Positions 2,483 to 36,240 of a stretch of DNA of 41,468 bases are shown here, one piece after another. The translations under genes were made by a program, and so were the position numbers. The notes below the pieces were generated by a model, which was not told the DNA's origin, ran no database searches, and saw nothing but the letters and a program-made list of their open reading frames with translations. Source of the stretch: Malassezia furfur (Eukaryota); the NCBI GenBank assembly GCA_052055015.1, contig JBQJIT010000047.1. One strand, given 5' to 3'. Each line of letters opens with the position of its first letter. Position 1 is the first letter of the stretch.

Positions 2483-4058
2483 CTACCAAGACACGCCCAG
2501 TGCGGCATAGGCGGCCCATACCAGCGCAACGCCGGCGACACATACGTGCATACGCGCGGCGCCTGCGCGCGCCTGCGCGTCCGACGGCGCCAGGTGCAGG
2601 CCGCTGGGCACTTGCTCCACCACGGGCGTCGGCAGCGTCGCAGACTGCGCGTCAGTGTCCAGCAGCTGCTCGGCACTCGACGCGACTGCCGTGGTCAATA
2701 ACGCGTCAGTTTTTGAGTGCGTCGCGATGCTCGTGAGCGGCGTGCGTGTGACGCCCTGCGTGGGCAACTGCGCAAAGCCCACGAGCGGCGGGTTGTAGCT
2801 AAACACGCTGTACACCGTTTTGAGGAACGAGTCGCCCATCACCCATGCAGGTGACGAGGACGACAGATGATCCGCGACAAATACGGCGCCGACACACCGG
2901 CTGCTGTCCGATGAGAGGCTGCCGAGGTTCAGCGTGTCGTTCGTTAGCACCCACGGGCGCTGGTTGAAGACGAGCGTCATGTTGAACTGCACGTCGCACG
3001 GAAAGGTATAATACTGCGCCAAGTCGCCCGAGCCTTGCTCTGCACCAGGCACCGAGTCGTACACCTGGGCGACCAACGCTGCAGGGCCGCCCAGCAACGT
3101 TGTGCCCGTATCGATCGAGGCCGAAGACTGGTTCCCCAGCTCGATCGGCTGACCATTTACCTTGAGTGCATCCATGTCGATGCCCCAGAACCCATTGCCA
3201 TGGGGGCCAAAAGTGTCCAGCACCGCGGACCAGCTGATCTCGCCGCGGAACTGGGTGCGATCAATTTTCCCCAGCGTCCATGTCCCGCCCGGCAGAATGT
3301 CGGTCTGGTTTTGGATGCTGTCGAGGTTGTTTGCGAGTTGGAAGGAAAAGACGGCGTCCTGCATCTTGCCAGTGGATGCCAATACCTCCCAGAATGGCAT
3401 GGTGCGCGACGTACTCAGTGTCTGGAAGCCCAGGCCCATGACGCCCGCCGCGGGCGGCGTCAGCGTGCGATCGCCTAGCCGGTTCGCTCGCGCAAAGGTC
3501 AAGTTCGCGACCTTGTACCCAGCGACTTGCACATCATCGGATACGAGTGTGCCGTCCACCTCGCCCACACCGTACTTGAGGTTGATCGTTGTGGAGCTCA
3601 CACGACTCGTGTTGCTGGCACTCGCATTGTAGCGCTGCAGATCTGAATCACATCCATCCGCGACGAGACACTGTGCATCTGCGAGCCAGAAGTCGGACGA
3701 GCCCGTATCGAGCACGACGTTGTATTCCTGCGCTGGCGTGCCAATGGCCAACCCGGCAAAATAGAAGCTGCGTGAGTGCATATGCATACCTGTCTGGGCC
3801 GTAATCGGCCAGGGAGGCCGTCTGACGCTCTTCATGCACATGCTCTTGTGCAGGTGCGTACCGCTCTCTCACACGCGTGGCCTCACGCCGAGCCCACGCA
3901 ACGAGCGCTTCGCCCTGCAGGCCATTGCGTGGATGCAAAGATCGACGATTGAGCCAGAGGGAGAGCGTCGTGTGGTTCTTGTCGGATACGGGTGTACCCT
4001 GCGCCATGACCAGCGCTAGCAGCGGCGCAAAGTACCACACCCATCCCCCAAGATGCAT
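2483..4058 (-). CDS. Secreted, probably GPI-anchored pepsin-family aspartyl protease, copy 1 (intron 3768-3789, 22 nt)
   Basis: Signal peptide and propeptide in ORF 3648..4058 join ORF 2483..3841 through GTATGC...CTCACGCAG; spliced length 518 codons. DTGS and DTGT catalytic motifs; hydrophobic C-terminus. Confidence 0.9.
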
Positions 4059-4279
4059 GGTACGAGCTGACAGTCGAGATCCCTCACGGATTCAGGGGTA
4101 TCCGATCCGCTCGGGGGTGCCGCCTCCGCGCGCAGTTACCTCCACCACCGATGTTTTGATTGGGTCCACCTGCATATTGTGGAGATGAGTGTTTATGCCA
4201 GGCGTCGGCGACCGTGCGCGGAGACAAAGGCCCCGGGCGGTGCTCGCACGCAACTACGAACAATGCACAAGTCAACGTC

Positions 4280-5941
4280 TTACAAAACAAAGGCGGCGGT
4301 CACCGTCGCAATGACCGCCGAGTACAGCACCAAATAGACACTGTAGGGCACCTGTACACCGTTGTCCTGGTTGCCGCCCAACCCGTAGGAGCGGAGCGAC
4401 GCGAGTGACTGGAAACCGGTCGGCACGCTTACGAGCGACGGTGTGGGCAGGCCGTTCCCGCCCAGCAAGCCCGTCTGTCGCGAGTGCACGGACGAGCTCG
4501 AAGTGAGCAGCGCACTGCTCGTGACACTGCCACCTCCCGCGAGCGACGTCGAGGCATCCGAGAAAGTCTCGCCCGACGTGATCGACGTCATCGGTAACGT
4601 CGACGCACCACCGGACGGCAGCGATGCAAAACCAACACGCTCTGGATTCCAACTGTACACGGAAAACACGGTGCGCAAAAACGTGTCGCCCAGAATCCAC
4701 GCAGGCATCGCCGAGTTCTGCGACTGCGGCGCGTCAAAGAGCGAGCTGATGCACATGTTGCTCCGGCTCGACAGGCGGCCCAGGTTCAGGTTTTCGTTGT
4801 CAAGCGTGAACTCTTTGCCGCCAAACGTCATCTTCAGCGTAAAGGGTTGCGTGCAGGGGTACATATAGTACCCCGAGCCGCCAAGCAGGTACGACGGCGC
4901 GGAGCGGACGCCGGGGATCTGGCTGTAGATCTGACGCAGGATGGACTGGGGGCCACCGATCAGCGTCGTGCCTGTGTCCACTGCGACGATGTTCTGCTGG
5001 TCGAGCTCGATTGTCTCGCCGTTCGCAACGAGTTTGTCCATGGTGATCGCCCAGTAGCCAATTCCCTGAGACCCGTACCCTTCAGTCAGGTCGACCCATG
5101 CAATGTCTCCTGTGTACTGCCGGTCGTCCAACACACCCAACGAAAACACACCACCAGGCACCACCTTGCTGGCCGAATCGCTCGAATCGGCCGACGCCAG
5201 CTGGAAGGAGAAGACGGGGTCCTTGACCTTGCCCTGGAGCGCGACCACCTCCCAGAACGGCGTACTCTCGCTCGAGGAAAGCGACTCAAAGCCCATGCCC
5301 ATCAGGCCGGACGCCGGCGGCTGGATGGTGCTTCCAGTCAACTGGCTCACGCGTCCAAATGTCAAACCATCCACCTGGTATTCGGCCATCGTCACGTCGT
5401 CGGCGCCCAACTTGCCAGACACCGTATTGGTGCCGTCGCCATAGGGCGTCAAAAAGGTGCGGTCGCTGCTGTTGAACGTCGAGCTTTTGGACGGGTCGTA
5501 AAGCGTCATCGACTCCGAGCAGCCCGTCAACTCCGAGCAGGACGCGTCGGCGATCCAAAAGTCGGACGATCCCGTGTCCATCAGCACATTCACGGTTGTC
5601 GACGGCGTGCCGATGCCGATCGGCATAAAGTAGAAGCTGTTCTGGCCATAGTTGCCGATGCCGACCAGCTGACGCGCGTGCTTCTTCGCATTCTTGTGCT
5701 TCCGCGTGCTGTTGTACTTGGCATTGAGAGCGTTGCGCTCGCGGTCCATCCACTGCACAAATGCATCACCTTCCAGGTTGCCGTTGCGCGGGTGGAGCGC
5801 CTCGCTGTTGCTGCGGATCGGCACCTGAATTCCGGTGCCCTCTGCACGATGTGCGCTCGGCGTGGGCGTCGGCTCCGCATTGGCAAACTGGCAAAGCAGC
5901 ACGGCCGCGCAAACGGCGCGTCCTACAAGTCCCGTCAGCAT
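4280..5941 (-). CDS. Secreted, probably GPI-anchored aspartyl protease, copy 2
   Basis: ATG at 5941 (MLTGLVGRAVCAAVLL), DTGSSD and DTGTT motifs, Ser/Thr-rich stalk, hydrophobic tail. Confidence 0.92.
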   Translation of the reverse strand: MLTGLVGRAVCAAVLLCQFANAEPTPTPSAHRAEGTGIQVPIRSNSEALHPRNGNLEGDAFVQWMDRERNALNAKYNSTRKHKNAKKHARQLVGIGNYGQNSFYFMPIGIGTPSTTVNVLMDTGSSDFWIADASCSELTGCSESMTLYDPSKSSTFNSSDRTFLTPYGDGTNTVSGKLGADDVTMAEYQVDGLTFGRVSQLTGSTIQPPASGLMGMGFESLSSSESTPFWEVVALQGKVKDPVFSFQLASADSSDSASKVVPGGVFSLGVLDDRQYTGDIAWVDLTEGYGSQGIGYWAITMDKLVANGETIELDQQNIVAVDTGTTLIGGPQSILRQIYSQIPGVRSAPSYLLGGSGYYMYPCTQPFTLKMTFGGKEFTLDNENLNLGRLSSRSNMCISSLFDAPQSQNSAMPAWILGDTFLRTVFSVYSWNPERVGFASLPSGGASTLPMTSITSGETFSDASTSLAGGGSVTSSALLTSSSSVHSRQTGLLGGNGLPTPSLVSVPTGFQSLASLRSYGLGGNQDNGVQVPYSVYLVLYSAVIATVTAAFVL

Positions 5942-6320: not shown

Positions 6321-6683
6321 TTAACCAAACATGCCGCCGGTCGAGCCGCCGCCCATGCCGGCCGACTGGCCGATGGCCTGCATCTGCTCGCCGACCTTCG
6401 CGTTCACGGCGAAGAACTTGGCGACGCAACTGAGGGGTGAGTACGACACACATACCGGTCGAGACAAACGCTCTCGCCCTTGTTGAGGTCGGGCTCAGCG
6501 TAGCGCGTGTTGATGCACTTGGTATGACACGCGTCGACCAGACGGTTGAAGACGTCCGTGATCATGTCGAGCTGCACATGTCAGTTTCACACATGGCCTA
6601 CACACTTCGGCAGTTGCGGCCTCGATCTGCGCCGAGTTTGCCGCGGCGGGCTGGCTACTTCCACCACCTCCGAAAAGCGGCAT
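6321..6683 (-). CDS. TIM10: Mitochondrial small TIM chaperone Tim10 (introns 6572-6605 and 6430-6455)
   Basis: Spliced product ...[25 protein letters not shown]...KGESVCLDRCVAKFF...; twin CX3C motif; 101 codons after removing 34-nt and 26-nt introns. Confidence 0.9.
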
Positions 6684-6848
6684 CTTGCTGTACGAAAACC
6701 AAGAGGCGTCGCCGACGACGAAGCGCTGACTAATCCTTGCCCGGGGGGCGCCGCGCCGCGAGCAGCGGATGGTGATCGGCGTAGAGCGTGTTCAACAAGG
6801 GAGGTCCATTTGGATTGTCTATGTCATAGTACAGAAAGTGTTTCTTGT

Positions 6849-8752: not shown

Positions 8753-10347
8753 CTAGCATACAAGAGCATAAGCAATCAATGCCATGGCCAGCAGCGTAGC
8801 TTGCACAATCGGCACACGTCCCATCTGATGCGGGGCATCATTTTGACTGCCAGAGGCTGTCGAGGTGCCAGAGGGAAGCGAACTGGGTACACTGAGCTTG
8901 CCCATCCCACTGGGCACCTCGGCGAGCGCCGGCGTCGGCAGCGAGCGTGGCCCTGATTCCGACATACTCCCATTGCCTCCATTCGCTGTCGTTGCACCTG
9001 AAGTTGCTCTGTGACTTTGTGTGGAGCTCAGCGCAAGCGTCTTGGGGCCATTTTTGGGGAGCGACGCAAACCCAACGCGTTGTGGCTCCCAGCTGAACAC
9101 GGAAAACACCTCGCTCAAAAAGACGTCGCCCAAAATCCACGCGTTCGTTTGGTTGTCTGTCGGGTACACCACCGACGCAAATCCGCTGACACACGTTGAG
9201 GTGGTCTTATTGAAAGAGCCAATGTTGAGCTGGTCCTGGTTCAGTGTGAATGCACGGCCCCCAAACGTGAAGGCCACCTCAAACTGCTCTGAGCAGGGGA
9301 ATACATAATACGTGGCAAAATCGTCATCCCGCTTCTCGCCCTCCGCCGAGGATGCCAGCGTGGAATTGGGGATCTGTTCATGAAACGCCTTGGCGACTGC
9401 TGGAGGGGCACCAATGAGCGACGTGCCGGTATCAACCAGGACTAAGTTGTTCGAACCCAATGGGACGTCTGAACCATCGAGAGAAAGTGCATCCATCTTG
9501 ATACCCCAGAACCCTTTGCCCTTGGAATCGTAACGACTGTCCAGGTCCATCCACGTAATCTCGCCAGAATACTGCTGGCTATCGAGAGTGCCGAGCGTGA
9601 ACACACCACCTGGGACCATCTCATTCGCCTGCGACTGGTTTGTATTGACCTTGAGCTCGAATGAAAACACGGGATCTTGAACCTTGCCCTCAGCCGCCAC
9701 GACCTGCCAAAACGGTGTCACATGGTTGTCCGAAAGCGATTCAAAGGCTAGGCCCATAATTCCGGATGTGAGCGATGTATCATTCCTCGTTCCTGGTACA
9801 ACGCAAAAGTTCAAACCAGCGACCTTATAATTCGCTAACGAGACATTGTCGGCGGCCATCTACCTTGGTTGCCGAGGTACGTAATTCTCGTCGTACGATT
9901 GCTCGGCTAATATGTCGAACTTTTTGACGGATCAAAAAGTTTCACGGTGCAATCCGTGCAAGGTCGAGTCTCGACCCAGAAATCGGCGGAGCCGGAATCG
10001 AGCATTACGTTGTAAAGCTCCTCTGGCGTTCCGATGCCGACTTGCGCATAATATCGCCCACTAAGGACTATATTTCCAAGCGGCGCCGTTTGGCGTGCAC
10101 GCAATTTTGCCTCCCCTTTGTTATGATATTTGGCATACTTCCTGTGTAAATAGTTACGTTCGTTCTCCATCCATTGCCGTAAGGCCTCGCCTTGCAGGTT
10201 CTTGTTGCGCGGATGCGGCACTTCCCGATCAAACAGGATCGGTAGGCGGATACCTGGTGATTCAGATGGATTGGCAGACTGTGCCACGGATGACACAGCA
10301 ACGACGTTCGCGATCAGAGAAATCAGCACGATCAGAGAGTACTTCAT
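8753..10347 (-). pseudogene. Aspartyl protease copy 4, disrupted by an in-frame TAG (9907-9909) and a frameshift near 9860
   Basis: ORF 9907..10347 (signal peptide, DSGSAD) and ORF 8753..9859 (DTGTS, GPI-like tail) are two halves of a close paralog of copy 3. The total span is not a multiple of 3, and I found no intron that repairs both lesions while keeping conserved residues. Confidence 0.75.
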
Positions 10348-11418: not shown

Positions 11419-11651
11419 ATGGGCAAAGTCCACGGATCTCTCGCTCGTGCCGGTAAGGTCAAGTCGCAAACTCCCAAGGTCGAGAAGCAGGAGAAGCCCA
11501 AGCAGCCCCGCGGCCGCGCGCACAAGCGTCTCCTTTACAACCGTCGGTATGTATCCATGGATTTGCAACAGTATACTTACACATCAGCTTCGTCAACGTC
11601 CAGGTCGGCCCTGGTGGCAAGCGCCGCATGAACTCTAACGCGGACAAGTAA
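11419..11651 (+). CDS. RPS30: 40S ribosomal protein S30 (eS30); CDS intron 11547-11587 and probable 5'UTR intron 11378-11414
   Basis: [26 protein letters not shown]...YNRRFVNV...RMNSNADK; 64 codons after splicing. The UTR intron reads GTAGGT...GCTAAC...TTAG. Confidence 0.95.
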
Positions 11652-12097: not shown

Positions 12098-12697
12098 CTA
12101 TGCCACAGCGATGCCGTCGCGGTACACGACTAGTTGGGGTGCGCTCTCTTTCGGGCTGCGCGACGCGCGTTCAACCCAGCCGATATCGAAACGGTTGTCA
12201 AGCACGCCGTGCGCCAGTGCTTCGTTCCACACGAACCCCGCGCAGTGCAGGTCGCGAAAGTCGGCGTGAGGCGAGGTGAGGTGCAGCAGGAGCATGGGTA
12301 CACGACTCGAACGCGCCTGCAGCATCGCATGCTTGCTGAACCCCGAGAGAACCGCCAGAACACCAATCAAAGGTGCCTCATCAGGCTGCGTCGCAAGCGC
12401 ACCAGGCGCTGTAGACGTCGGCGCAAACTTGTCCCACGCGGCACGCACCAGCGTGCCTTCGAGCTCGCGCACAATATGAGGACCTGCTGGCTTGGCGATC
12501 GCCTTGCATTGGGTCACGACACGAACGCGCGCGTCCGGCTGTGTGTGCACCGGAGAGAGTGTGTGGGGCGACCACCACCCACATAGGTCCATACCGCGGT
12601 CGTGGGCGCCCCCTGTGCGGTACACATCCATGCGCAGCCAGCGCTGCAGCAGCGACAGACACGCCTGCTCGTACGCCGTACCCCGCAAGGTCGCCAT
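12098..12697 (-). CDS. RRG7: Rrg7/DUF2034-like protein with Mrr-type restriction-endonuclease-like motif
   Basis: GTAYE...RTGGAHDRGMDLCGWW...VVTQCK...GPHIVRELEG pattern typical of Rrg7; start taken at ATG 12697. Confidence 0.75.
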   Translation of the reverse strand: MATLRGTAYEQACLSLLQRWLRMDVYRTGGAHDRGMDLCGWWSPHTLSPVHTQPDARVRVVTQCKAIAKPAGPHIVRELEGTLVRAAWDKFAPTSTAPGALATQPDEAPLIGVLAVLSGFSKHAMLQARSSRVPMLLLHLTSPHADFRDLHCAGFVWNEALAHGVLDNRFDIGWVERASRSPKESAPQLVVYRDGIAVA

Positions 12698-12744: not shown

Positions 12745-13191
12745 ATGGCGCCGACGAGCCAGCGGAGCAGCATGGCGCCCATGTCGCGCGCGCGCATGTC
12801 GGTCGCGCCCGGCGCCGCTGCAAATGCGCGCCTGGCCGCAAAACAAGCAGAGCTGCATGCGCTGCAGAATCTACGGAACGAATCTGCGCGGCTCGCACAG
12901 GAGATGGCCCAGCTGGGCGACCGCGTGGACACGCTCGTCGCTGGTGGCATCTGTACGTGTTTGCGCTTACACAGCCGTGTCTTCCGTCATGTCGAGCTGG
13001 CAAGGCGTATTCCGAGCGATCCAGATTGCACAGGGTACGTGTTTCTATTTTTTTTAGCTCACGCAGCAACCACTGCCGCGTCGCGCGAGGCCGAGTCAAC
13101 CGCGACAAACGGCGCGCCCGCTGATAGCGTACGGCAGGTGCCCGAGGCGCTTGTGCGCATCCCAATTCAGACGTCCGAGTCTACGCCATAA
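12745..13191 (+). CDS. DAD2: DASH/Dam1 complex subunit Dad2 (introns 12953-12974 and 13035-13066)
   Basis: Spliced product: ARLAAKQAELHALQNLRNESARLAQEM...SVMSSWQGVFRAI...VPEALVRIPI; 131 codons. Confidence 0.85.
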   Translation: MAPTSQRSSMAPMSRARMSVAPGAAANARLAAKQAELHALQNLRNESARLAQEMAQLGDRVDTLVAGGICTCLRLHSRVFRHVELARRIPSDPDCTGYVFLFFLAHAATTAASREAESTATNGAPADSVRQVPEALVRIPIQTSESTP

Positions 13192-15600: not shown

Positions 15601-17709
15601 TTAGTATCGCCGCGCAGGGCGCTGCAGCTGGTAGTAGTGCGGCGCGAGCTCGAGCAGCCACGCCTGGTCGATCACGGTGATGTCGCGCATCATCGGCTTG
15701 GTGGTGTGCGTCACCTCGCCAAACACCACCCAGCGCTCGGGCGGCGCACGCGTGAACAGCACCGAGGACGGGTGCGCCCACAGCAGCGCGCTGTGGTGCA
15801 CGCTGCGGAAACTCCCGTCGTCGAGGCGCTCGGCCGCGTTTTTGAACAGGCCGGCGACGAGGCACTTGCGCACGAGTGTCGCGTCTTCCGAGCTGCGCAG
15901 CGGCAGCGACCAGTGCAGCGTGACGTACTTGGCAAGCTGCGCACGGATGGTCTGTGCGCGCCGCAGCGACGCGTACGACAGCGAGTACTTGGCCGCCCAC
16001 TTGGGCGACTGCTGCCCGATGCGGGGGTGCACAAACGCATTGTACACGTTGAGCAACGTGAGGTGGTCGCCCTCCTCGGCGACAAACTTGCGCCGCGCAA
16101 TCTCGGCCTGCACGTCCATCGACGGGCCGTATTCGAACGCGGTGAACGGCGAAGCGACCGACGTCATGGCCGCGATGGTCAGCACCTCTTCCGAGCAGCC
16201 GGCATGGGCGGCATACAGGAGCTGCGTGAGTCGATCCACGTACCGCACGCGCCATCATCGGGTCGAGTGGTGCCTCGGCCAGGCGCTCACCGAGCGGCAG
16301 CAGTCGTCCGTGGTCATCGAGCGCCTCGAGCGACGCCAAGTAGGTGAGGGCGCGCGACATGGCCTCGGCGCTCGGTGCGGGCGGCACAAAGTCGAAGCGC
16401 GCGAGGTTGTCGATCCCCAGCGCCTTGAGCTGCAGCAAGTACGGCGCGAGATCGCACCGCACCAGCTCCGGCGTCGGCCCGCGCGGCAGTGCGGCGAGTT
16501 GCGACGCAGGGAACAGACGGAGGCACTTGCCCGGCGCCGTGCGTCCTGCGCGGCCGGCGCGCTGGTGGAGCGCCGCCTGCGACGCGGGCACCACGGCGAG
16601 CACGTCCATCCCCGACGCCCAGTCGAGCTGCTTGATTTTGGTAAAGCCTGTATCAATGACGTAGACGATGCCGTCAATCGTGACACTCGCTTCAGCGACG
16701 TTGGTCGCGAGGATGATTTTGCGTGTACCGCGCGGCGCGGGCAGAAACACGCCGTTCTGCTCATCGGGAGGGAGACCCGCATAGAGCGGGAGGAGGAGCA
16801 TGGGCAACGACCCGGGCGGAAGCGCCGCATAGCGGTCGTGCAGTGCCTGCATCGCCGTCTGAATCTCGTCGCGCCCGGTGAGGAAGACGAGCAGGTCACC
16901 GAGCGGCTGCGTGAGGTGCACATTCCACGCGGCCTCAACGGCCGCCTGCACGTAGTTGTGTACGGGGGCGGGGGTGTAGGCGATCTCCACAGGGTAGCTG
17001 CGCCCCTCGAGCGAGAGGAGCGCGACGTCCTCGGTCGCCTGGCCGGCGTACGTCGGATCGAAGTAGCGCGCAAACGCCTCGGCATCGATTGTCGCGCTCG
17101 ACACAACGATGCGCAGCTCGGGGCGCACCTTGCGGATCTTCTTGAGTAGCGCAATGAGCAGGTCGGTGTATACGCCGCGCTCGTGCGCCTCGTCGACCAT
17201 CACGACGCTGTAGCGCGACAGGAGAGGATCGCGCATGCACTCGCGGAACAGCAGTCCCGGCGTAGTATACTTGAGTTGCGTGTGCACCGGGTGCGTGCAG
17301 TCCTCGAAGCGCACCGCATACCCGACCTCCTCGCCGAGCTTGGTGCGCGTCTCCGAGGCGACGCGCGCAGCGACCGACGAGGCCGCGACGCGCCGCGGCT
17401 GCGTGCAAACCACTTGGCGTCCGTCTGTAGCCCACCCTGCCTCGCGTATGTACTGCGGAATTTCTGTGTGAGATGTGCGCACGTACGTGTGGTCTTCCCG
17501 CTGCCCGTATGCCCAACGACGACGACGACGCCGTGGTGCTCGAGGAGGTACAGCAGCTCACGGCGGTGCCGGTAGACGGGCAGCCGCTCACGCAGCTCCG
17601 CATCCACGAACGACGGTTGCGGCACGTCGATGCCCAGCTCCTGCTCACGCACCGACGCACGGTCCAGCGCGCTCGCCGGCCGCTCCGCGCCGGGCTTCCA
17701 AAACGCCAT
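15601..17709 (-). CDS. DHX35: DEAH-box RNA helicase, DHX35-like (introns 17464-17486 and 16222-16243)
   Basis: GHTGSGKTTQIPQY, TQPRRVAA, DEAHER, SAT, ATNVAEASVTI, QRAGRAGR; N-terminal MAFWKPG. Three ORF fragments join through 23-nt and 22-nt introns to 688 codons. Confidence 0.9.
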
Positions 17710-17732
17710 GCCGCTCGCCTGCGAACCTCCAC

Positions 17733-19235: not shown

Positions 19236-19844
19236 AGTACAAGAGGAGCACCACACAGAACCCTGCGATCGCGAGGATGCGGGTGTTGCGCCACCACATC
19301 TGCCGCCGGAGCCCCACGGCGCGCCGGCGGAACGCGAGGCTCTGGTGGGCGGCCGAGTCGGTGCGGTCCATGAGCAGCTCGATCTGCTCGCCACGGCTCA
19401 GGATTTTCTCGACGTTTTGCGTGAGCACGTCCTTGACGCTCCCGAGCTCGGCCTGGGCGCGGCGAATCGGGTCCGATTCGGGCGCCTCGTTGAACTGCGC
19501 ACGGAGCGCGTCGAGGCGCGCCTGGAAATCCGACGAGGGCGCGGCGGTGTACTGCGGCGGTGTGAGCGACGATGCGTCAAACGTACCTCCTTCTCGAGCT
19601 GTGTGAGGAACGCAAACGGGATGCGACGCCCCAGCTCGGCGTCGGCGACCGCCAGGTAGACGTAGCCGTCGTGCGCCACGTAGTGGAAGAGCCACGACTC
19701 AAACGCGTACGAGAGGCGCTCGGCCTTGTCGGCATCGATCTTGTGTAGGATGGTCTGCGCGGCGCTGAGGAAGCGCGCGTGCTCCGCGTCGTGCGACGCG
19801 ACCACCACGCGGGGGCCCTGCGCAACGAGCGCCAGCACGATCAT
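19213..19844 (-). CDS. VAMP7: Longin R-SNARE, VAMP7-like (intron 19552-19586)
   Basis: Longin domain (RLSY...FHY...GRRIPFAFL), SNARE motif (VKDVLTQNVEKILSRGEQIELL) and C-terminal TM; 199 codons; overlaps the CHMP7 3' end by 23 nt. Confidence 0.88.
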
Positions 19845-22832: not shown

Positions 22833-23871
22833 ATGACGCCCTCCATCTTGGTCGTGGGGGCCGGTGCGGTCGGCGCGTTCTATGCAAGCCGCTTTGATCG
22901 GGTACGTAGCCATGCCAGGGCCATTCCTTATATAGCAATCGGCGCATGTCGCCCTGGTATGCCGCTCGAACTATGACGCCGTGAAACGCGATGGATTCTC
23001 CATGAAGACGCACAGCTTTGGAGACTACACCTTCTCTCCGGACGCCGTATATGCGTCGGTGGACGAGGCGCGCGACCAGCCGTGGGACTACGTCGTCGTC
23101 GCGACCAAGGCACTCAACCTCACTACGGACGCCGCCTCGTTCATCGCGCCTGTCGTCTCGGAGCGCACGACCATCGTCCTGATCCAGAACGGGCTGGACG
23201 TCGAGGCACCGTACCGCGAGCGCTTCCCGGACGCCCCGATCGTGTCGGCCATCACGATCAGCAGCATCGAGCTCACCCAGCCGTCCGAGGTCGTGCAGTA
23301 CCGCTGGACCCGCATCTCGCTTGGACCATACACGGACCGCTACGGCCACGCCAACGACGACGCACAGCGCCGCCTGTGCGAGCGCGGAACGGCCAGCAGC
23401 ACCGAGCTCGCCGAGATCTGGCAGCGCGGCGGCATCCGCGACACCGAGACCTACGATGCACTCGGCATCCAGCTCGTCCGCTGGCACAAACTCAGCATCA
23501 ACGCCTCGATGAACGTCTCGGGCGTGCTCGCGGGGTGCCTCGGAAACGACGCCATGACGCAGGACCCGTTCCTGCGCGACCACCTCGAGGCGTGCATGCA
23601 CGAGGTGCTTGATGCCACCCCGAAAATCTACGGCGTGCCGCTCCCGGATAAGTTTGCGACGCCCGAGGCCATCATCCGCAGCACCGAGCGCAACAAGAAC
23701 AGCCGCTCAAGCATGGTCCAGGACTGGCTCGCGCATCGCCCGATCGAGCTGCAGGCCATCCTCGGCAACGGGCTCCGCGTCGCTCAGGAGCACGGCGTTG
23801 TCATGCCGCGCCTTGCGACCATGTACGCGCTGCTGCAAAGTGCCTTCCAAGTTCACATGGCTGCTACGTAG
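22833..23871 (+). CDS. Ketopantoate reductase (ApbA/PanE)-family oxidoreductase (intron 22902-22935)
   Basis: ILVVGAGAVG, DYVVVATKAL, LIQNGL, RWHKLSINAS and SSMVQD motifs; 335 codons. Confidence 0.88.
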
Positions 23872-23940: not shown

Positions 23941-24122
23941 TTACTTCTTGCCCTTCAGCTTCTCGATCGCCGCCTTCTTGGCCGCAGCCTCCTCACGCTG
24001 CTTCTTCTGGAAGGCAAGGTCCTGCACGATCAGCACACACTGCCTACATCCTCGTCCAGCTCCTTGGTCTGCTTCTTGGCCTGCTTAAGAGGCTTCAGCT
24101 TGCCGCCCTGGCGTCCCGACAT
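23941..24122 (-). CDS. TMA7: Translation machinery-associated protein 7, C-terminally short (intron 24022-24047)
   Basis: [51 protein letters not shown]; 52 codons. Confidence 0.88.
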
Positions 24123-24333: not shown

Positions 24334-25217
24334 ATGCCCGCTGTGTCGCAAGACGGCAAGCAACGCCGGTCCCCTCGCACTGCGCCTGGCAAAGCGGCCG
24401 GGAACGAAATGCCCCGCCGACGACGCGCTTGCCCCCCGAACCGCAAGACGGACCATTCGGTGATTGAGCGCCGGCGCCGCGAGAAAATCAACGACCGTCT
24501 CCTCCATCTCCAGCGGCTCGTGCCGGCGTGCCGCGCACAGGCGGCCGAGCACTTCCAGCGCAAGGCCCAGGATCCAGACGACGGACGCATGGATACCGAC
24601 CTGGTGCTCGAAAAGCTGTGCATCATCTCTCATACGGTCGGTATGTGGCGTGGCGTCTTACCCCAGACTATGTCGAGCAGCTCCAGACACAGCTCGAGGC
24701 CTACCGCGCCCAGTGCCAGTGCGAGCCGAGCATTCCCGAGCCAAAAGGAAATAGCGACGAGCACGTCGCCTTTGCACACGACGGAATACATGGGTGCTCG
24801 TCGCGCCGCACCTCACGCACATCGAGCACAAGCCCCGAGCCGAAGCCGGCGGCGGACGCCGACGCGGGGCCGGACGACCCGCCGCTCGACGACGTCCACG
24901 AGGCGGACCCATGTGCCGAGTGCATGCCAGCGCCTCCTTTGGTCGTGTCATCCGGTGCGCCAGCGGTCTTGCCGCATTGGCACTACACGGTATGGGACGC
25001 GCCCGACGCGTACACTGCGTCGTGTGCGCATTGGCACACGCCGCGTGCAGTGCCGTACGCTGGCCATAGAGACGCGGTGTGGCACAGGCCGTGGCACCGC
25101 GCCTATTGTATGTGCCCCACGACGGGTGCCAAGGATGCGCGGCGCCGCAGCCTGGGTGCCGCGCGCCTCGCGCACCCCCACGCGCGGCCCCCCGCCGCGG
25201 TGCGGGGGCCGCGGTAA
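24334..25217 (+). CDS. bHLH transcription factor (intron 24641-24666)
   Basis: Basic region RKTDHSVIERRRREKINDRL, helix 2 LEKLCIISHTVDYVEQL after splicing; 286 codons. Confidence 0.85.
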
Positions 25218-25257: not shown

Positions 25258-26990
25258 ATGTGGAGCTTGCAGGGCCGCGCCGGCGGCGCGTCGTGGGCGC
25301 GTGCGGTGAGCGCCGCGGTTGGGGGCCGGCGGTGGGTATCGAACAAGCCGTACTATGTGACGACGCCCATCTTTTATGTGAACGCTGAGCCGCATATCGG
25401 GCACCTGCACTCGGACGTGCTTGCCGACGTGCTGTGCCGCTACCAATCGCTGCGTACCGGCGGATGGTCGCGCAACGCGGACGGCGTGTACCCGCCGCCA
25501 ACGCGTGCACAGCTCGCCACGGGCACCGACGAGCATGGGATGAAGGTGCAGCGCGTCGCCGAGTCGCAGAACGTGTCGCCGCGCGCGTTGTGTGACCGCG
25601 TGAGCCAGCGCTTCCAGGCACTCGCCGACGAGGCCAACATTGCGTACACGCGGTTCATCCGCACCACGGACGCGGACCATTCCGTGGCCGTCACAGCCTT
25701 TTGGGTACGTCGCACGCCCCCGGACTCACCCAGCAAACGCTCGTGGACCGCGGATACGTGTACCTCGGCAAGCACGAGGGGTGGTACGCCGTGTCCGACG
25801 AGGCGTTCTACCCCGACGCGCAGGTGCAGCAGGTCACGCGCAACGGCGAGACCTGGCACGAAAGCATCGAGACGGGCCAGCGCGTCGAGTGGACCGCGGA
25901 GACGAACTACAAGTTCCGGCTGTCGGCGTTCCAGGCGCCGCTGCTCGCGTGGCTCGAGGCGAACCCGCGTGCGGTGCAGCCGCGCGGGATGTACGAGCGG
26001 GTGCTGAGCGAGGTGCGCGAGGGCCTGAGCGATCTGTCGATCTCGCGTCCCCGCGCGCGCCTGCACTGGGGCATCCCCGTGCCGAACGACGCAGAGCACA
26101 CCATGTATGTGTGGGTGGACGCCCTGATCAACTACCTCACGGCCGTGGGGTACGCGGGCGGCGCCCCCCCGCCCGCGTGGCCGGCGGATGTGCATGTGGT
26201 CGGCAAGGACATTGTGCGCTTCCACGCGATTTACTGGCCGGCGCTGCTGATGGCCGCGGGGCTGCCGTTACCGCGCACGGTCGTGGCGCATGCACACTGG
26301 ACCGTGGAGCGGTCCAAGATGTCCAAGTCGCGCGGCAACTCGGTAAACCCGTTCGAGGCACTTGCCAAGTACGGCACAGATACCATCCGGTGCTTCCTGA
26401 TGCGCGCAGGGGGCAATATCTCGTCGGACGCCGATTACTCCGAGGCGCAGCTGCAGGAGTTCCAGCGCAAGTACCTGCAGGGCCAGCTGGGCAACCTGCT
26501 CTCGCGAGTGCTCGCGCCCAAGATCCAGGCGCGGCTCGTGGCGCATGCGGCATCCGACGCGGCGCTCGCCGCGCCGCAGCTCGTCGAGGACGATGTGGCA
26601 CTCACGTCGGCCATCGCCGCGCTGCCCTCGCGCTTCGATGCGCACATGGACGCGTTTGAGCTGAGCCGCGCGCTGCAGGCCGTGTTCGAGGTGCTGGCGC
26701 TCACGAATGAGTACGTGCAGCGTGCCGCGCCGTGGTCGCCCGCGACGCCCGTGGACGGCGTGCACCGCGCCGTGCACCTCGCGTGCGAGGCACTGCGTGT
26801 GAGCGGCGTGCTGCTGCAGGCGATCATGCCCGACGCCATGACGCGCCTGCTCGACGCGCTGCAGGTCGCGCCCGCCGAGCGCACGTTTGCGGCGCTCCTC
26901 GGCGCAAACGGCGTGTGGACGACGCGCACACACACGCCGGTGCGCGCGGGGGCGGCCAAGATTGCGCCCTTGTTTCCTCGCGTCCCATAG
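25258..26990 (+). CDS. MSM1: Mitochondrial methionyl-tRNA synthetase (intron 25705-25733)
   Basis: Presequence-like N-terminus, YVTTPIFYVNAEPHIGH, TGTDEHG, GKDIVRFH, KMSKS; 568 codons. Confidence 0.93.
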
Positions 26991-26991: not shown

Positions 26992-27841
26992 CTATGCCAC
27001 TACACATCCGTGCGCCGCCATCTTCTTCTCCCCAGTCATGTACACGACCAAACGCCCCGTCTTGGTGCTGAGCTCGAGCACGTCGCCGCGCTTGCCGTTG
27101 CCCGTCATCCACGCGGGCAGGTCGGGGTCTGCCACCAGCTTGATCGTGCCGTGGCGCTTGTTCTGCTCGGCGTCGAGCCGCTTGGCATGCGAAGACACCT
27201 CGGGCGACATGTGGAACGTGCCCGTCTCGACACGCCACGAGAGCATGCCGTTGAAGGAGCGGGGGATCGCAACCGTCACTGGGTGAGTGGCGCAACGTAC
27301 CATTGCCTGCTGTCGACTTGCAGCGGATGTGCAGCGGGCGGCGCCCGACGTACTGTGGCACATTGACTGTGACCGAGTTGCTGACGCTCTTGGCGCTCAC
27401 AAACACGGTGTTCTTGCGCATTGACTCGGCGAGTGAGTTGGGGGTGAGCGTTGGTGCACTGCTGCCCGCGGGCGTCGACAGCTGCCCGGGCTGGGGCGTG
27501 TACGGCGTGATCGATCCGCCCTGGCCGTGCAGAATGTTGACGGTGACGTTAATGGGGCTCGAGCGCGTCTTGAACATGGCGCTCGCCGCATTGTCCTGCA
27601 CGACCTCAGGGAGCGGCATGTCGAAGAGCGGGGGTGAAACGTCGGGCAAGCTCGCGCCAATCGTGTACAGTCCCTTGATCGAGGCACTCGGCCAGTCGAT
27701 GAACAGGTGGCGCACGGGCTGCTCGCTATCTTCGTTCATATAGGCCCGAACCTGGGCGTCGTCGGCGTCGGGCGGCACCTCGTCGCTGGGCGCCTCGTTC
27801 GGCATCAACATCGAGCGGCGGTGCGCTGCGGTGCTCGACAT
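26992..27841 (-). CDS. Uncharacterised beta-rich basidiomycete-type protein with C-terminal CAAX (intron 27279-27300)
   Basis: ORFs 26435..27841 and 26992..27363 join through a 22-nt intron to 276 codons, ending KKMAAHGCVVA. Confidence 0.7.
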
Positions 27842-27958
27842 CGTCGTCAGTCAGGGCGGCCGCACGGTGCTGTACGCCCACGAAATTGTAAAGCCCGCGC
27901 GAATTCCGACAGGGCGCCCACGACCAATCACATTCCACCGGCCTCCGCGGCGAAGACG

Positions 27959-29278: not shown

Positions 29279-29284
29279 ACACGG

Positions 29285-29961
29285 CTATTTCTTCTTGCGC
29301 GGCGTCGGTGCGTCGCTGCTCTTGCGCTTCTTCTTTTCACTCTTGGGCGCGCGCGTCTCGGCTCGTGCGCCGGCAGGGATGCTGCGTGAGTGAGTAGAGC
29401 CACGTACAACTGGCCCTTCAAACGGTCCCACGGCTGCACATGCGCCTGGTGCGGCACGGCGTGCACGGGCGCCTCGGGCTCGCTCCGTGGCGCGCGGCGC
29501 GCCATATACATGCGGCGGTGCAGCCGCTTCGGCGCCACCTTGAGCGTATTGTGCGACGTGGGCAGCAGCGGCACGATGCCGTTCAGGTCCGTCGCGATGC
29601 CGACGCCGCGCTCCTCGGCAAAGTAGTTGTCGTCGACAAACACATCGGCCTTCTCGCCGCCGGCCATATCGATCAGCTGTGCACTGTTGTCGGTGCGTGC
29701 ATCTGTACGCCGCGTAGATGCGACAAACAGGTCGTATGTGTCGTTGCCAACGTCGACGGACGCGAGCGACGTCCGCGATGTGCTCTGCAGCGCGTCGAGC
29801 GACAGCGTAACGCCATCAAGCTTGCGCACATCGATCTCGTCGGGCACGCGGATCACCCACAGCTCTGTATCATCACCGTCCATCTCCGGCACCTGGCTGC
29901 GCCGGTAGCCGACGGGCGGCACAAACGGCGCGTCGGACGCCGTACCTGCAGACTGCGCCAT
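29285..29961 (-). CDS. RPA34: RNA polymerase I subunit RPA34/A34.5-like (intron 29382-29407)
   Basis: PPVGY, ELWVIRVP, LKGQFIPAG after splicing, Lys-rich tail ...SEKKKRK...RKKK; 217 codons. Confidence 0.7.
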
Positions 29962-30029: not shown

Positions 30030-31119
30030 ATGGCACGGACGCCATGGCTCACTACGCTCGCGGCCCTTGTCGCCGCCTACCTCATATGGCGCCGTCTGCA
30101 CATGCGCAAGCGCCGCCCTGCACGCATCACACCGAGTGGCGAGCGCGTCGCGATCCTCGGCGCATCGACCGAGGACGGTCTGGGGGCCACGTTCCTCCAG
30201 CACTACCTTGAGCGCGGTGCACGCCAGGTGGTGATCGTCGGCCGCCGTCGTGCTGCGCTCGAGGCCGTGCGCGAGGCTGTGCTGCGCCGTGTGCCCACCA
30301 AGCACCCGGATGCCGTGGTGCACGTGTTTGCAGCGGACTGCACCAAGACGGACGACGTCATTGCGCTGCGCGACTTTCTCCTCACCGAGCTGCACGGCCT
30401 CGACACGCTGCAGATCGTGTTTGGCGTGACGTCCATCCTGCCGATCCTTGGTCTCGCTAGCGTCGACCCACTCGGCGTGAACGCGCGCGATGCAGCGTCG
30501 CCCAGCGACGTGCATCCCACCGCCGAAGGCCTGACGTCCATCGCCGACACGGTGCAACACTCGTGCGATGGCAACATCAAGGGCACGGCGATCGTGCTTG
30601 GTGCCTTGGTACGTGCCCCTCTGACCCAGATCCCCGTCCTCCAGACCACATCGGCTGACCCCGTGGTCGTCGGCACGGGCTCCGTCGCGGGGCTGATCCC
30701 TGCGCCGACCCGCGCCGTGTACTGTGCGACCAAGTCTGCCCAGCACTATTTGCTCGACAGTGTCGCGCTCGAATGTGAAGCGCAGGCGGGCCACACCGTT
30801 CCGGGCACCGATAAGCGCCGTGCGCTCGTGCGCTTCCTCATTGTCGCGCCGGGACCCATCAAGAACTCGTTCGTCAAGACGTACGCGGTCGATTCGGGTA
30901 GTGGGCCGCGCGACAACCGTGAGCGCGCGCTCGACGTGCACGATGTCGTGCGTGAGACGCTCATGGCCGTCGACGCCGACCACATGGGCATGCTGGTCCT
31001 CCCGCGCCACGTCTTTTGGGCGTCGCTCCTGACCAAGTTTGTGTCGACGTACGTCCCCTCTGCTCACCTCCAGACGCGCGCTCATTGGCAAGATGTCCCA
31101 CCAACTGTATCACTACTAA
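30030..31119 (+). CDS. Membrane-anchored short-chain dehydrogenase/reductase (introns 30609-30629 and 31049-31073)
   Basis: N-terminal TM, ILGASTEDGLG, VGRR, catalytic S and YCATK; 348 codons when spliced. Confidence 0.85.
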
Positions 31120-31130
31120 CGGGGGGTATA

Positions 31131-32303: not shown

Positions 32304-33121
32304 CTACCTAAACTCCGGAACACAGAACTCGCCCGGGCCGTACGGCTTGTGCGTGAGCGTCCGCTCGTTGCCCGCGGGCGCCGAGTTCAGACGACCGTCT
32401 TGGTTGCCCGGCTTGACGTGCTCGCCGCGCTCGAGCGCGTCGATGATGCGGACCATGGACTGCGGCGTGAGGTCCTCCTGTGGTTAGTGGGTTGCGTTGC
32501 CGCAAAACGTACGTAGTAGTCGTCGTTGATCTGGACCATGGGCGCGTTCGCACACGCACCGAGGCACTCGACCTCGATCATGGTGAACTTGCCATCCGAC
32601 GTCGTCTCACCCGGGTGGATGCCGAGGCGCTCCTGGATGGCATCCAGGACGCTTTCCGCGCCGCAGCCTCCCAGCATGCACGGCGTCGTGGTGCACACCT
32701 GGATGAAGTGCTTGCCGACCGGGGTGCGGTTGAACATGGTGTAGAAGGTGGCCACCTCGTACACACGCATCGGCGGCATTTCCAAGAACTCGGCGACGTA
32801 GTTCATCGCGCTGATGCTCAAAAAGTTGTCATTCTGCTTCTGTGCGAGATGCAGCAGCGGGATGACTGCAGCCTTCTTGTAGTTCTCGGGGTAGTGGCTA
32901 ACGATCACGTTGGCCTCCTTCAGGTTCTCTTCCGTCCACGCAAACGGAATGGACGGGTTGTTGTACGGCGTGTCGCGGTGGACGAACAGCGCGTCCGAGC
33001 GTGCCGGCACGCTGCTCGACATGCTGCGGGCCGCCGCAATACGCGACGCACCCCAGCGGGGCGCGGATACCAACCCACGCAGAGTCGCCCGGAGGGCCGT
33101 TTGCCGCAATGCCGAAGCCAT
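32304..33121 (-). CDS. NDUFV2: NADH:ubiquinone oxidoreductase 24 kDa subunit (intron 32478-32512)
   Basis: [41 protein letters not shown]; 261 codons. Confidence 0.95.
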
Positions 33122-33203
33122 CGTGCTTGTGTAACGGCTCGCTGCTGGTTGGCCGCGCGGGCTTTGATGTACGGCACGTGACTTCCACCACCCTCCACGC
33201 GCG

Positions 33204-34613
33204 ATGGACGCCGTGTGCGCGGGGTGTGGTGCGGTGGGCACGGTGCACCGCGTGCCCGAGATCGACGGGCGCGTGTGCACCGCGTGTGCGGCGCTGGCAG
33301 ACGAGTGCGCACTCGATGCGCCCGTAGACGCCGCCGCCGACGCACACGAGCCTTGGCCCACTGACGCAGAACGGCGGCTCCGGCGGCACACCTACGACCC
33401 AGAGCACGGCCGCCGCGCCGCACACCGGCGGACGCGCGCGCACTATACGTCGATGATCCACAGCGCCGCCGTACGTATGGGGTACGCGTATGCAAGCGAG
33501 CGCAGCGCGGCCCTGTGGGGGCAGGTAGGCGCGACGCTGCCCCGCGCACAGGCTGCCGTCGCCGCCGCGGCGCTCTACGCCGTCCTGCGGCATGACCGGC
33601 GCGCCGTGGACGTCGCAGCCGTCGCGATCGCGATGGAGCAGCCGTACGACGCGGTTGTGCGTGCCCTGCGCACGCTGCGTACGCACCACCCGGTCGCATT
33701 TGCCGACGCACACGTCGAGGACCCCGGCGTGTACGTCGGCGCGCACCTCGCCTACCTCGTACGAGCCGCACCCGCGGCAGGCGAGCCAAATGGCCCGCTG
33801 CTGTCACGCGTCAACCTTGACGAGGCACAGCGGCTCGGCGCGGCGATCGCGCAGCAGTGCCGACTGTACGAACTCACCGGCCTCGACGCCCAGCCATTTG
33901 CATTTGCCATCGCCCTGCATGCGCTCGAAGGTGCCACGCAGCGCACGCTCGTCATCCGCGCGCTTGTTCCGCTCGCCACGCATGCGATGGCCGAGCAGCC
34001 CGTGCACGGATGCACGGCGGCGCCCGCATCCGGCTCGGCGTCGACGATCCTGGCGCGCTACGCCGAGGTCGGCAAGATGCTCGCTGCAGCAGTCGCTGCG
34101 CTGCCGTGGGCGCGGCCCGGCAAGCGGCAAGGTGCGCGGCGGCACACGGCGCTGTATGTGCGCGACCTTGTGGCGTACTGGGCGCAGCATGGGCACCCCG
34201 CCAAGACTGAGGCGCCCCGGGCGTGGACGAGCTGCTTCCATGCACCGGGTGCGGGCGCGGCGCGGCGTGATCGGCGCGGACCAATACCCACGTTGTCGCC
34301 GCCGCCGTCGCCGCCGTCGCCGCCGTCGCTTGCGCGACGTCTGCAACTCACCTCCGCGGCGATCGACGCGCTGAGCGACGCGCAGGTCGACCGCATGCTG
34401 TTTGCGCGCGCCGAGTTCAACAGCTACCTGCGTCCGCCCGCCGAGCAAGAGGTGGTGCGCCGGCTCAAGGGCTGGGATGCCACCGAGCGCGCAGCGACGC
34501 CGCCGCCGGCCCCGCTGCCCATAGATACCCCCCGGCGGCTGCGTGCGGCGCCGCATCTGTACACGCCGCTTGACCCTGCCGAGCTCTCTGAGGGCTCGGA
34601 CTGGGAGATGTAA
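33204..34613 (+). CDS. Divergent TFIIB-related factor (BRF2/BRF1-like)
   Basis: N-terminal CxxC-x16-CxxC zinc ribbon, cyclin-like [12 protein letters not shown]-terminal [13 protein letters not shown] resembling the BRF TBP-anchor block. Confidence 0.6.
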
Positions 34614-34626
34614 TCTATCCTGTATT

Positions 34627-36240
34627 CTACCCACCCGGCACTTCGGTGCGCTGCACACCGCGTGCGCGCTCGGGCTCCTTTTCGCCCACGAGGCCGTCGT
34701 ACCAGTCACGCGACAGGCCGGCCTGGGCGCGGTCGCCCTCGTTGAAGGGCCCCTTGAGCTTCCCGACAAAGTTGCGGCGCACCTCCTCGCGGAACACGGC
34801 AACCGGGTCGCGCGGAGGGTCGTGCGTCGCGCACAGGTACGTTAGCCACCGGTGACCTGCCGAGACGTGCGTAATTTCGTCGAGGTGGATCACGTTGAGC
34901 GCCGCGACGGAGCGTTCGTCGCCTGCGGCCGCAAACTTGCGGATGGTCACCGGGTTCACGTCGAGGCCGCGTGCCTCGTGCACGAGGTGGATGATGGCTG
35001 CGTCAGAAAGGCACGTACATAGGCGTGCGCTCAGACTTTCCGACGTCTCCACCGCCGACTCCCACAGGCCGTGGTGCACGGGCAGAGCGCCAAAGTAGCT
35101 ACCCATCTCCATGAGCCGCCGCTGCAGGAGCGTAAAGTGCTTGGCTTCGTCGAGCGCAACCTTAAGAAAGTCGGAGTAGAACTGCGTCGGAAGCGTCGGT
35201 TTCGGCGTCGGCTGCGCGTCCGTGCGCGCCGCCGTCGCACTGAGCCGCGGCGCACGGGCGAGGATGCTGCGTGAGCGGCGCACGTACTCCCAGGCCAGGT
35301 CGATCGCCCACTGCTCAATGTTGGCGAGCGCGTGCAGCAGCGCAATGCGGCTGCGCTCCGTGCCGCCCTTGCCGCGCTTGCCCTCGGCGCCCGGCGCGAC
35401 GCGGCGCTCGCTGGGGAGGCGCGGCGGCCATGCGGGCGGCGTCTCGCTCTCGGACGTCGTCCACACGCCGTCCGCTCCCCAGCGTCCGCCGCCGATCGTA
35501 CGACACTGCCCGTTCCGGAAGGCCTCGGCCGCGTACTGTGTGTAGGCGACCTTGGCGAGCGGCTCGGCGGTCGACAGCACCAGCGCTGCCCATGCACACA
35601 GCGTGCGCGGCGCAGGGTCGGGGCGCGGCACGGCCGCCCAGTCAAACGACGGCGCGGGCGCCTCTGCATCGCTCGGGGGCGCGTGCGGGGGGTCGCGCGG
35701 GATCTGTGCAAACGCTGCGTGAGCCGAGTCGGCGCACCTTCCGAGACGGCGCGCACCTCGACGACCTCCCACGGCGCCTCGGGGTCCGTGTGCGGCGTCT
35801 CAACCCACACGTCGCCGTCGCGTGTCGTGACTGCATACACACACGACGACAGGCCCGTCGATGACTCGCCCGTGCTCAGCTGGAAATCGTATTGCTGTGT
35901 GAGTTGGCCGGGGGAGACGCACATGCCACCTGCGTCAGTGCAGCGACATACGGGCTGCGTCAGCTGCGCCACGTACCACACCACTACCGTATCCTCCAGA
36001 TCGCCCGCGTCGCCCCGCTCCTCGAGCGCGGCGTGCTCGAGCGGCGCGCCGAGGTGGGGGCACGCGGCCTCCATGCAATAATAGGCCGCGTCTTCGGCAC
36101 CCTGGAACGAGAACAACACCGACTTAGCACACACACGTACACACCGAGTGGTAGGCATTCGTCTGCGTGTTGCGCAGCGTAATGTGATGGCGCGCGGCGC
36201 CGTCCAGCGCCGCGCGCGCCCCGACGCGCACCTGCGGCAT
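34627..36240 (-). CDS. Rieske [2Fe-2S]-DUF455 (ferritin-like di-iron) fusion protein, 7 introns (about 36119-36140, 35955-35976, 35930-35951, 35895-35922, 35715-35737, 35267-35287, 34998-35018)
   Basis: CPHLG and spliced CPWH Rieske motifs; HALANIEQWAIDLAWD, DEAKHF, HEARGLD and DEITHV in the DUF455 part; spliced length 485 codons. Confidence 0.85.

Follow-up and report, generated by a model that had tools for sequence, protein, structure and literature searches.

Very short introns in Malassezia and in other lineages

Very short spliceosomal introns are known from several lineages, including Paramecium (about 25 nucleotides, nt), the chlorarachniophyte nucleomorphs (18–21 nt) and microsporidia (from about 23 nt). 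In Trichomonas and Giardia, which have very few introns, the branch point lies within a conserved 3' motif, while animals and plants possess microexons of 3–7 nt, the inclusion of which is needed for a conserved motif. In the fungal genus Malassezia, very short introns are already published: the accessible part of the M. sympodialis annotation describes a curated set of 5350 introns with a mean of 30 bp, 99% of them supported by RNA-seq, with introns allowed down to 10 bp (Zhu et al. 2017, PMC5389616), the M. restricta annotation, in its accessible part, used minimum intron lengths of 15–20 (PMC6473144), and a review mentions "very short introns" (PMC7426719). Here, we consider a stretch of 41,468 nt of Malassezia furfur DNA (contig JBQJIT010000047.1 of assembly GCA_052055015.1; hereafter the window), for which an earlier note had proposed a population of introns of 21–23 nt with a fused branch point and 3' splice site. 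Based on sequence, homology and literature for this one 41-kb window, we consider it very probable (roughly 0.9) that these elements are genuine U2-type GT-AG introns, shrunk to about the smallest workable size. What is new here is a conserved microexon cluster and a well-defined layout: a literature search with most subscription journals outside it returned nothing on splice-signal layout, length mode, a fixed branch-acceptor module or a between-species contrast in Malassezia, nor any fungal microexons of this kind.

The window holds 26 supported introns of 21–41 nt, of which 14, including one that ends in GG, measure 21–23 nt (mini-introns); the size range and the number of mini-introns of the earlier note thus hold, with a total slightly below its 28. 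The lengths are 21 nt (three introns), 22 nt (eight), 23 nt (three), 25–29 nt (seven) and 32–41 nt (five), with a minimum of 21 and a mode of 22 nt. Thirteen of the 14 sites that had been listed at 21–23 nt are complete GT..AG elements of that size, four on the + strand (12953, 18003, 18247, 30609) and nine on the − strand (3768, 16222, 17464, 27279, 34998, 35267, 35715, 35930, 35955); the fourteenth, at about 36119, ends in GG. These 13 canonical mini-introns share the layout GT[AG][CT]G[CT], 6–8 nt, CT[CGT]AC, N, [CT]AG, so that the proposed architecture (GTACGT or GTATGT, about 7 nt, branch box, N, CAG) is confirmed with a spacer of 6–8 nt, a box CT(C/G/T)AC and an acceptor (C/T)AG.

Across all 26 introns, the donor is GTACGT in 16, GTATGT in four, GTGCGT in two, and one of four other GT[AG]NG[CT] forms in the remainder, with C at position +4 in 19 (16 GTACGT, two GTGCGT and one GTACGC; GTGCGC is counted apart). 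A branch box of the type pyrimidine-T-N-A-pyrimidine is present in 25 introns (15 CTCAC, four CTGAC, three CTTAC, and three others once each), and the acceptors are CAG (23), TAG (two) and CGG (one); 25 of the 26 therefore begin with GT and finish with AG, the exception being 36119–36140 (GG). Beyond the likely branch A, 5 nt remain in 18 of the 25 introns and in all 13 canonical mini-introns (6–8 nt in six introns, 11 nt in one), leaving three bases between this A and the AG in the same 18 and 13 introns, and therefore no room for a pyrimidine tract. The absence of such a tract had been claimed, as had the fusion of branch point and 3' splice site, and both claims hold: the longest pyrimidine run anywhere in a canonical mini-intron is 2–7 nt, and branch box and acceptor form one fixed 9-nt module, CT(C/G/T)AC-N-(C/T)AG. 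Since the distance from the A to the intron end is fixed, differences in length are confined to the spacer that separates donor from branch box (6–8 nt in the mini class); the likely branch A of the mini-introns lies at position 16–18, the smallest value being 16. Three of the 14 mini-introns are 21 nt long, in frame, and all three stop-free, a small sample; a shortage of in-frame, stop-free introns has been reported for Paramecium.

How do these introns compare with those of the other lineages? With a mode of 22 nt, and 14 of 26 at 21–23 nt, they do approach the ciliate, nucleomorph and microsporidian lengths, as had been suggested. They share with Paramecium, nucleomorphs and microsporidia the length class and a recognition that necessarily spans the whole intron, but those genomes are A+T-rich. 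As in Trichomonas and Giardia, a single conserved block contains branch site and acceptor at constant spacing, although the block is longer there and introns are few, against a 9-nt block and about one intron per gene here. Unlike animal and plant microexons, those of the window are fungal, lie between introns of 22–28 nt, are presumably constitutive, and sit inside a metal-ligand motif. For the ciliate Stentor coeruleus, the accessible part of the source describes introns of 15–16 nt, with GT-AG ends, the branch A at position 10 of 15, and no pyrimidine tract (PMC9505925). The Stentor introns resemble those of the window in their tiny, near-fixed length and in the five bases that follow the branch A, which suggests that there may be a common lower limit. 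They differ, as far as the same part of the source goes, in that they are 75.6% A+U, have a branch consensus that is weak and hardly vary in length, whereas the window introns are fungal, have 37–74% G+C, strong donor and branch boxes, and a tail of lengths up to 41 nt. Lineages whose introns are very short tend to have degenerate signals, according to the accessible part of Irimia and Roy (2008, PMC2483917), while the window introns are short yet rigid in their signals, and not A+T-rich with weak ones. Within the genus, the M. sympodialis set, as described in its accessible part, also has short introns, with a mean of 30 bp against a mode of 22 and a floor of 21 nt in the window.

Reading frames, protein domains and orthologues

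The first line of evidence comes from reading frames. Codon log-odds, trained on Pfam-supported stretches, were used to score 30 codons on each side of 22 candidates. For 15 of the 16 single candidates that are not divisible by three in length, the flanking frames fit splicing and exclude read-through, and the sixteenth (3768) has a weak upstream coding score, in a signal-peptide exon; some flanks belong to the training set, so that this test is not fully independent. If kept, 10 of the 13 canonical elements would throw conserved housekeeping genes out of frame. Domain coordinates agree: in an exon-by-exon scan, Pfam positions adjoin at the exon ends in TMA7 (23/24), methionyl-tRNA synthetase (MetRS, 104/105), DUF455 (148/(149)/150), Dad2 (43/(44)/45), PanE (19/20), small Tim (45/(46)/47) and DUF7330 (106/(107)/108), and Longin position 58 falls at an exon end.

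The three 21-nt elements (30609, 34998 and 35267) are in frame and stop-free, and therefore beyond the reach of a frame test. Each is without a counterpart in the orthologues from beyond the furfur complex (10 of 10), and without them conserved residues reappear, namely a D that all such orthologues share and, locally, the sequence ARL-S-IIHLV. A phmmer alignment of the unspliced dehydrogenase to PDB 3rku, which began inside the 30609 element, seemed to favour read-through, but the N-to-P spacing and the orthologue alignment showed the opposite. At every site compared, the orthologous sequences favour the minimal splice forms. The proposal that Malassezia introns of the spliceosomal type are present is borne out, each of the 13 canonical mini-introns being backed by a restored frame, by abutting Pfam coordinates or by an exact gap in orthologues.

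The layout of the mini-introns is also far more frequent than expected. Written as a regular expression, it has 22 matches at 20 distinct places in the window, against a chance expectation of 1.4 (standard deviation 1.3, maximum 6, in 200 second-order Markov simulations of the window), that is, an enrichment of about fifteen-fold, and all 20 places are on the sense strand of their host gene. The same expression has three matches in 78.6 kb of non-Malassezia loci (L006–L025), 3–8 matches in each of three loci of 4–7 kb from GC-rich Malassezia relatives (L001, L004 and L005), and none in the loci L002 or L003.

Several points weigh against the elements being introns throughout. The motif in itself is insufficient, given that one of the 20 strict matches and one looser match are coding. 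The former, a 27-nt in-frame look-alike in CDC27/APC3 (40298–40324, −), encodes a TPR helix that aligns without a gap to the TPR residues of human CDC27; the latter (18537–18569, +, 33 nt, in frame) encodes a CHMP7 Snf7 helix, sits within a Snf7 match of equal length, and the M. brasiliensis orthologue retains it. Both were rejected as introns, and in-frame motif matches consequently need a homology test. For the introns at 24641 and 29382 the evidence consists of frames and motif, the branch points were assigned by motif alone (each being a candidate branch A), the 3' end of the 36119 site is a non-canonical GG, and excision itself is something that we infer from sequence, homology and literature.

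A gene-finder script, whose splice matrices were trained on 21 of the short introns (its recovery of those is thus not informative), added four further short introns (11547, 13035, 22902 and 24022), which were then checked with Pfam. Its predictions of 78–129 nt were discarded, as they bridge genes or are antisense, and its short candidates at 37335–37352, 27872–27912, 12644–12674, 18782–18811 and 33513–33549 were set aside as antisense or as bare predictions, outside the count of 26.

As judged from its sequence, the window belongs to the nuclear genome of the Malassezia furfur species complex and is densely populated with genes. The closest named relatives of three window proteins are from Malassezia (92–95% identity to M. 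furfur CBS9595_003025, 83% to M. brasiliensis and 60–70% to other Malassezia), the G+C content is 55–70% with a lower stretch (0.55–0.57) at 8–12 kb, and a Pfam scan of 149 open frames of the window revealed eukaryotic housekeeping genes densely packed on both strands. Those recognised include four tandem aspartyl proteases, ribosomal proteins S10 and S30, Dad2, a DEAH helicase, CHMP7, a longin SNARE, MetRS, a short-chain dehydrogenase, NDUFV2, a Rieske-DUF455 protein, RNase H2B, NDUFS8 and CDC27. An Rfam scan of the window gave no match. Aspartyl protease 4 of the tandem array (8756–10347, −), located in the lower-GC stretch, has an in-frame TAG where its paralogue has Q, and a frameshift at about 9860–9910. 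It is probably a pseudogene, and the gap at about 9860–9910 was rejected as an intron in view of these two lesions.

Outside the Rieske-DUF455 gene, which is treated below, the mini-introns are found in six genes (a slash marks an exon junction). Aspartyl protease 1 has one of 22 nt (3768–3789, −, phase 2), identified by its motif and by the spliced sequence DYGPD/S/FYFAGLAIGTP, which matches the contiguous GNYGQNSFYF of the paralogue Asp2. In the DASH subunit Dad2, a 22-nt intron (12953–12974, +, phase 1) has fitting frames; the DASH_Dad2 match extends to position 41, two residues short of the exon end, and the exon that follows begins at about 45. It is followed by a 32-nt intron (13035–13066, +), which restores the frame together with the former (22 + 32 = 54 nt), the third exon corresponding to Dad2 73–99. 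The 32-nt form ends in a canonical CTCACGCAG; upstream of CTCACGCAG there is a run of eight T followed by AG, and an alternative 23-nt form, which ends at 13057, is in frame like the 32-nt one.

The DEAH helicase (15604–17919, −), whose nearest PDB chains are of DHX35 type (9l5s_z and 9s2f_35), itself holds two mini-introns. The first (17464–17486, −, 23 nt, phase 1) gives the junction GSGKTT/Q/IPQY, with the P-loop at the upstream exon end and the alignment to 9l5s_z starting from downstream residue 1 (IPQY); the second (16222–16243, −, 22 nt, phase 0) is bordered by HA2_N, which stops seven residues before the exon end, and by HA2_C, position 8 of which is residue 1 of the next exon, while the PDB alignment runs to the exon end. 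In CHMP7/Chm7, the M. brasiliensis orthologue P0156 reads AVVM/EELVRQ, exactly the spliced product, at a 22-nt intron (18003–18024, +, phase 0), and LLDNVE/QAAQL at one of 23 nt (18247–18269, +, phase 0), where the frames also fit. The 22-nt intron of the DUF7330 gene (27279–27300, −, phase 1) separates model positions 3–106 and 108–187, which adjoin, and the orthologue P0169 reads STTGNVTVVLP across the junction.

The short-chain dehydrogenase carries the 21-nt in-frame, stop-free intron discussed above (30609–30629, +) as well as one of 25 nt (31049–31073, +), the splicing of which gives a C-terminus T/RALIGKMSHQLYHY that matches the orthologues. In a sister sequence with 90% identity, eight residues at the 30609 site spell GT.TG...CT.AC.CAG, a 24-nt form. 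Introns also differ between close lineages, where flanking residues are 90–99% identical: 30609–30629 is 21 nt long against 24 nt in P0123, and 34998–35018 (−), in the Rieske-DUF455 gene, has C at donor +4 against T in P0001/P0003.

The remaining introns measure 26–41 nt. The small Tim gene (Tim10/DDP) has one of 26 nt (6430–6455, −) that splits the CX3C motif, zf-Tim10_DDP positions 10–45 ending at the upstream exon end and 47–64 starting from downstream residue 1, with fitting frames; a 34-nt candidate upstream of this domain (6572–6605, −) is a gene-finder prediction and is not counted among the 26. In the ribosomal protein S30 gene, the match to Ribosomal_S30 (1–40) ends at the last residue before a 41-nt intron (11547–11587, +) discovered with the gene finder. 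A 35-nt intron of the longin/synaptobrevin SNARE (19552–19586, −) follows Longin 1–58, which runs to the last upstream residue, with Synaptobrevin starting 25 residues into the next exon. ApbA positions adjoin at about 19/20 across the 34-nt intron of ketopantoate reductase (PanE; 22902–22935, +), and TMA7 positions 1–23 and 24–48 adjoin exactly at the exon ends flanking a 26-nt intron (24022–24047, −). In MetRS, tRNA-synt_1g 1–104 reaches the last residue upstream of a 29-nt intron (25705–25733, +), and position 106 is residue 2 of the next exon; in NDUFV2 (the 24-kDa complex I subunit), 2Fe-2S_thioredx reaches 129 of 145 at the last residue before a 35-nt intron (32478–32512, −), and the frames fit. 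The two introns for which frames and motif are the evidence are those of an HLH transcription factor (24641–24666, +, 26 nt), where the junction peptide resembles HLH helix 2 by eye, and of an RNA polymerase I A34-like gene (29382–29407, −, 26 nt), identified by motif and frame change.

Microexons in the Rieske-DUF455 gene

The densest arrangement is found on the − strand, in the Rieske-DUF455 gene, where three introns and two microexons occupy 82 nt. Read from 35976 down to 35895, they are a 22-nt intron (35955–35976), a 3-nt exon CCC (35952–35954), a second 22-nt intron (35930–35951), a 7-nt exon GTGGCAT (35923–35929) and a 28-nt intron (35895–35922). The exon pieces TG, CCC and GTGGCAT rebuild C-P-W-H and then QYDF, as in Rieske orthologues (VVVCPWHQYDF), the third intron being required for the junction WH/QYDF.

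Orthologous loci from metagenomes (L001–L005) retain the same arrangement to different degrees. In L002 (G+C 0.52; 2624–2850), three T-rich introns of 98, 69 and 50 nt, orthologous to the first, second and third introns of the window, surround CCC and CTGGCAT. In L004 and L005 (G+C 0.72; L004 2776–2829), two introns of 24 and 23 nt surround GTGGCAT, the 23-nt one of L004 corresponding to the third intron of the cluster. The first intron is absent in L004 and L001, and the reading frame is uninterrupted at the cluster in L001 and L003. On the evidence of these loci, we regard the reality of the microexon cluster as settled. The 3-nt CCC exon is common to divergent lineages, and since the same cluster has longer introns in L002, the mini-introns are the shrunken counterparts of ordinary introns.

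Four other introns, one of them probable, interrupt this gene. A 23-nt intron (35715–35737, −) joins the Rieske and DUF455 parts, as indicated by the frame change and by orthologues that have both domains in one protein, and in L004 a motif element of 23 nt is found at roughly this position. Two more introns are 21 nt long, in frame and stop-free. On splicing of the one at 35267–35287 (−), the read-through E becomes the D that orthologues from beyond the furfur complex invariably carry; the other, at 34998–35018 (−), separates DUF455 positions 148/(149)/150, and in L004 a 23-nt motif element lies just past the FARL end of the orthologue match, at about the place of this latter intron.

The probable first intron, by frame and orthology, is the 22-nt element at 36119–36140 (−). 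Its donor is GTACGT, and a CTAAG box stands at the customary five bases from its end, but the end itself reads CGG. Its removal gives YHSV/L/LFSFQ, to be compared with YHSVLLFAFAG in an orthologue, the frames agree, and L002 has a 51-nt intron at the same codon and phase. Canonical forms fit worse, as the 22-nt form at 36144–36123 (GTGTGT..AAG) is without a usable branch A and the 43-nt form at 36144–36102 loses seven conserved residues; an 18-nt and a 39-nt form each fail on the signals or on the orthologues. The core of the 36119–36144 region (−) is bordered by a direct repeat of 7 nt (TCGGTGT). One non-canonical splice site is described for M. sympodialis SPO11 in the accessible part of Gioti et al. 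(2013, PMC3560662).

These introns are misread in public gene models. The NCBI M. furfur model P0003 translates both 21-nt introns of the Rieske-DUF455 gene into two 7-residue inserts, and joins the first donor of the cluster to the second acceptor, skipping CCC and giving VVVWWHQYDF, in which W replaces the C-P of C-P-W-H. Models from M. nana, M. psittaci and M. yamatoensis also read into introns; the affected public models P0003, P0029, P0127 and P0128 show 7-residue inserts, the CCC skip, or a terminal-intron read-in (STYVL). Public Malassezia protein sets thus translate or skip mini-introns and microexons, and studies that use such proteomes inherit these errors.

How minimal introns might be recognised

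Each mini-intron can be described in three parts, a 6-nt donor, a free spacer, and the fixed 9-nt branch and acceptor module. Boundaries, boxes and spacing can be read directly in the window, and the absence or length variation of the introns can be read in the orthologues. From these parts, recognition would take place across each intron (intron definition), with the donor bound by U1 and then by U6, and the branch box by U2. The first AG, three bases beyond the branch A, would serve as acceptor, with no intronic pyrimidine tract available to the large U2AF subunit. In the post-catalytic yeast spliceosome, as seen by cryo-EM, the branch A and the donor G together form the direct docking site of the acceptor AG, so that a three-base linker is plausible. 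With a recognition span of about 22 nt, exon length would be irrelevant, so that three introns in 82 nt, separated by exons of 3 and 7 nt, would be possible. Their removal would have to be sequential, given that the binding sites of adjacent introns are 3–8 nt apart (an acceptor lying 3 or 7 nt from the next donor). The identity of the branching A, the factors bound and the order of removal are thus as this scheme would predict them.

Is such a machine conventional or dedicated? We lean towards a general-purpose spliceosome at its lower length limit rather than one dedicated to mini-introns, because introns of 25–41 nt with the same signals occur in the window, and orthologous introns of 50–98 nt with T-rich 3' regions occur in a lower-GC Malassezia. 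In its complete form, the proposal is tentative: GC-rich Malassezia would possess a complete, conventional fungal spliceosome that operates at its physical lower limit, with the branch A at position 16, a three-base linker and rigid signals, and that would take three introns from 82 nt in turn.

Comparably doubtful is a spliceosome that has been specially adapted, as the earlier note had suggested, or reduced, for example because U2AF, SF1 or U1 parts have been lost or altered, or because a changed U1 5' end matches GTACGT. Such an adaptation would suit introns with no space for a pyrimidine tract, just 6–8 nt from donor to branch box, and a preference for C at donor +4 (19 of 26), and the idea has been pursued in other tiny-intron lineages (PMC9505925, accessible part). 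The same longer introns, in the window and in related Malassezia, speak against it, and Stentor, with introns of 15–16 nt, still lists U2AF1 and U2AF2 in the accessible part of that source. The window moreover encodes the DHX35-type helicase mentioned above, and its retention is a weak hint against a stripped-down spliceosome. DHX35 acts as a spliceosome fidelity helicase in Cryptococcus and humans.

It is less likely still, though conceivable for individual sites, that splicing takes another course there, through introns that are longer, through other splice sites, or through a regulated retention of those introns that are in frame and stop-free. The 36119 site does have canonical alternatives in the same frame (22 nt, 36123–36144, and 43 nt, 36102–36144), the second Dad2 intron may measure 23 or 32 nt, and a retained 21-nt intron would bring no stop codon; orthologue sequences nevertheless support the minimal forms wherever they could be compared. 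Finally, it is most improbable that the elements are not removed at all, as short coding insertions, frameshift errors or marks of pseudogenes, even though three of them are in frame and stop-free, P0003 translates two, the look-alike at 40298–40324 is coding and the neighbouring aspartyl protease 4 looks broken, given that 10 of the 13 canonical elements would shift the frames of housekeeping genes, that excision restores Pfam model order and orthologue-conserved residues, and that the motif is enriched fifteen-fold with every match on the sense strand.

In a transformable fungus, three observations sharply limit the proximity that donor, branch and acceptor can reach: the likely branch lies a fixed 5 nt from the intron end, no intron is shorter than 21 nt, and two 22-nt introns flank an exon of 3 nt. 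Orthologous introns that range from 98 nt to 22 nt to absent, across Malassezia of differing G+C content, also form a compact system in which to follow intron shrinkage and loss. If the proposal of a conventional spliceosome at its lower limit is true, the acceptor would be chosen without an intronic U2AF site, neighbouring sites would not be occupied jointly by U1 and U2, and a transformable yeast would become a model for the splicing of minimal introns and microexons.

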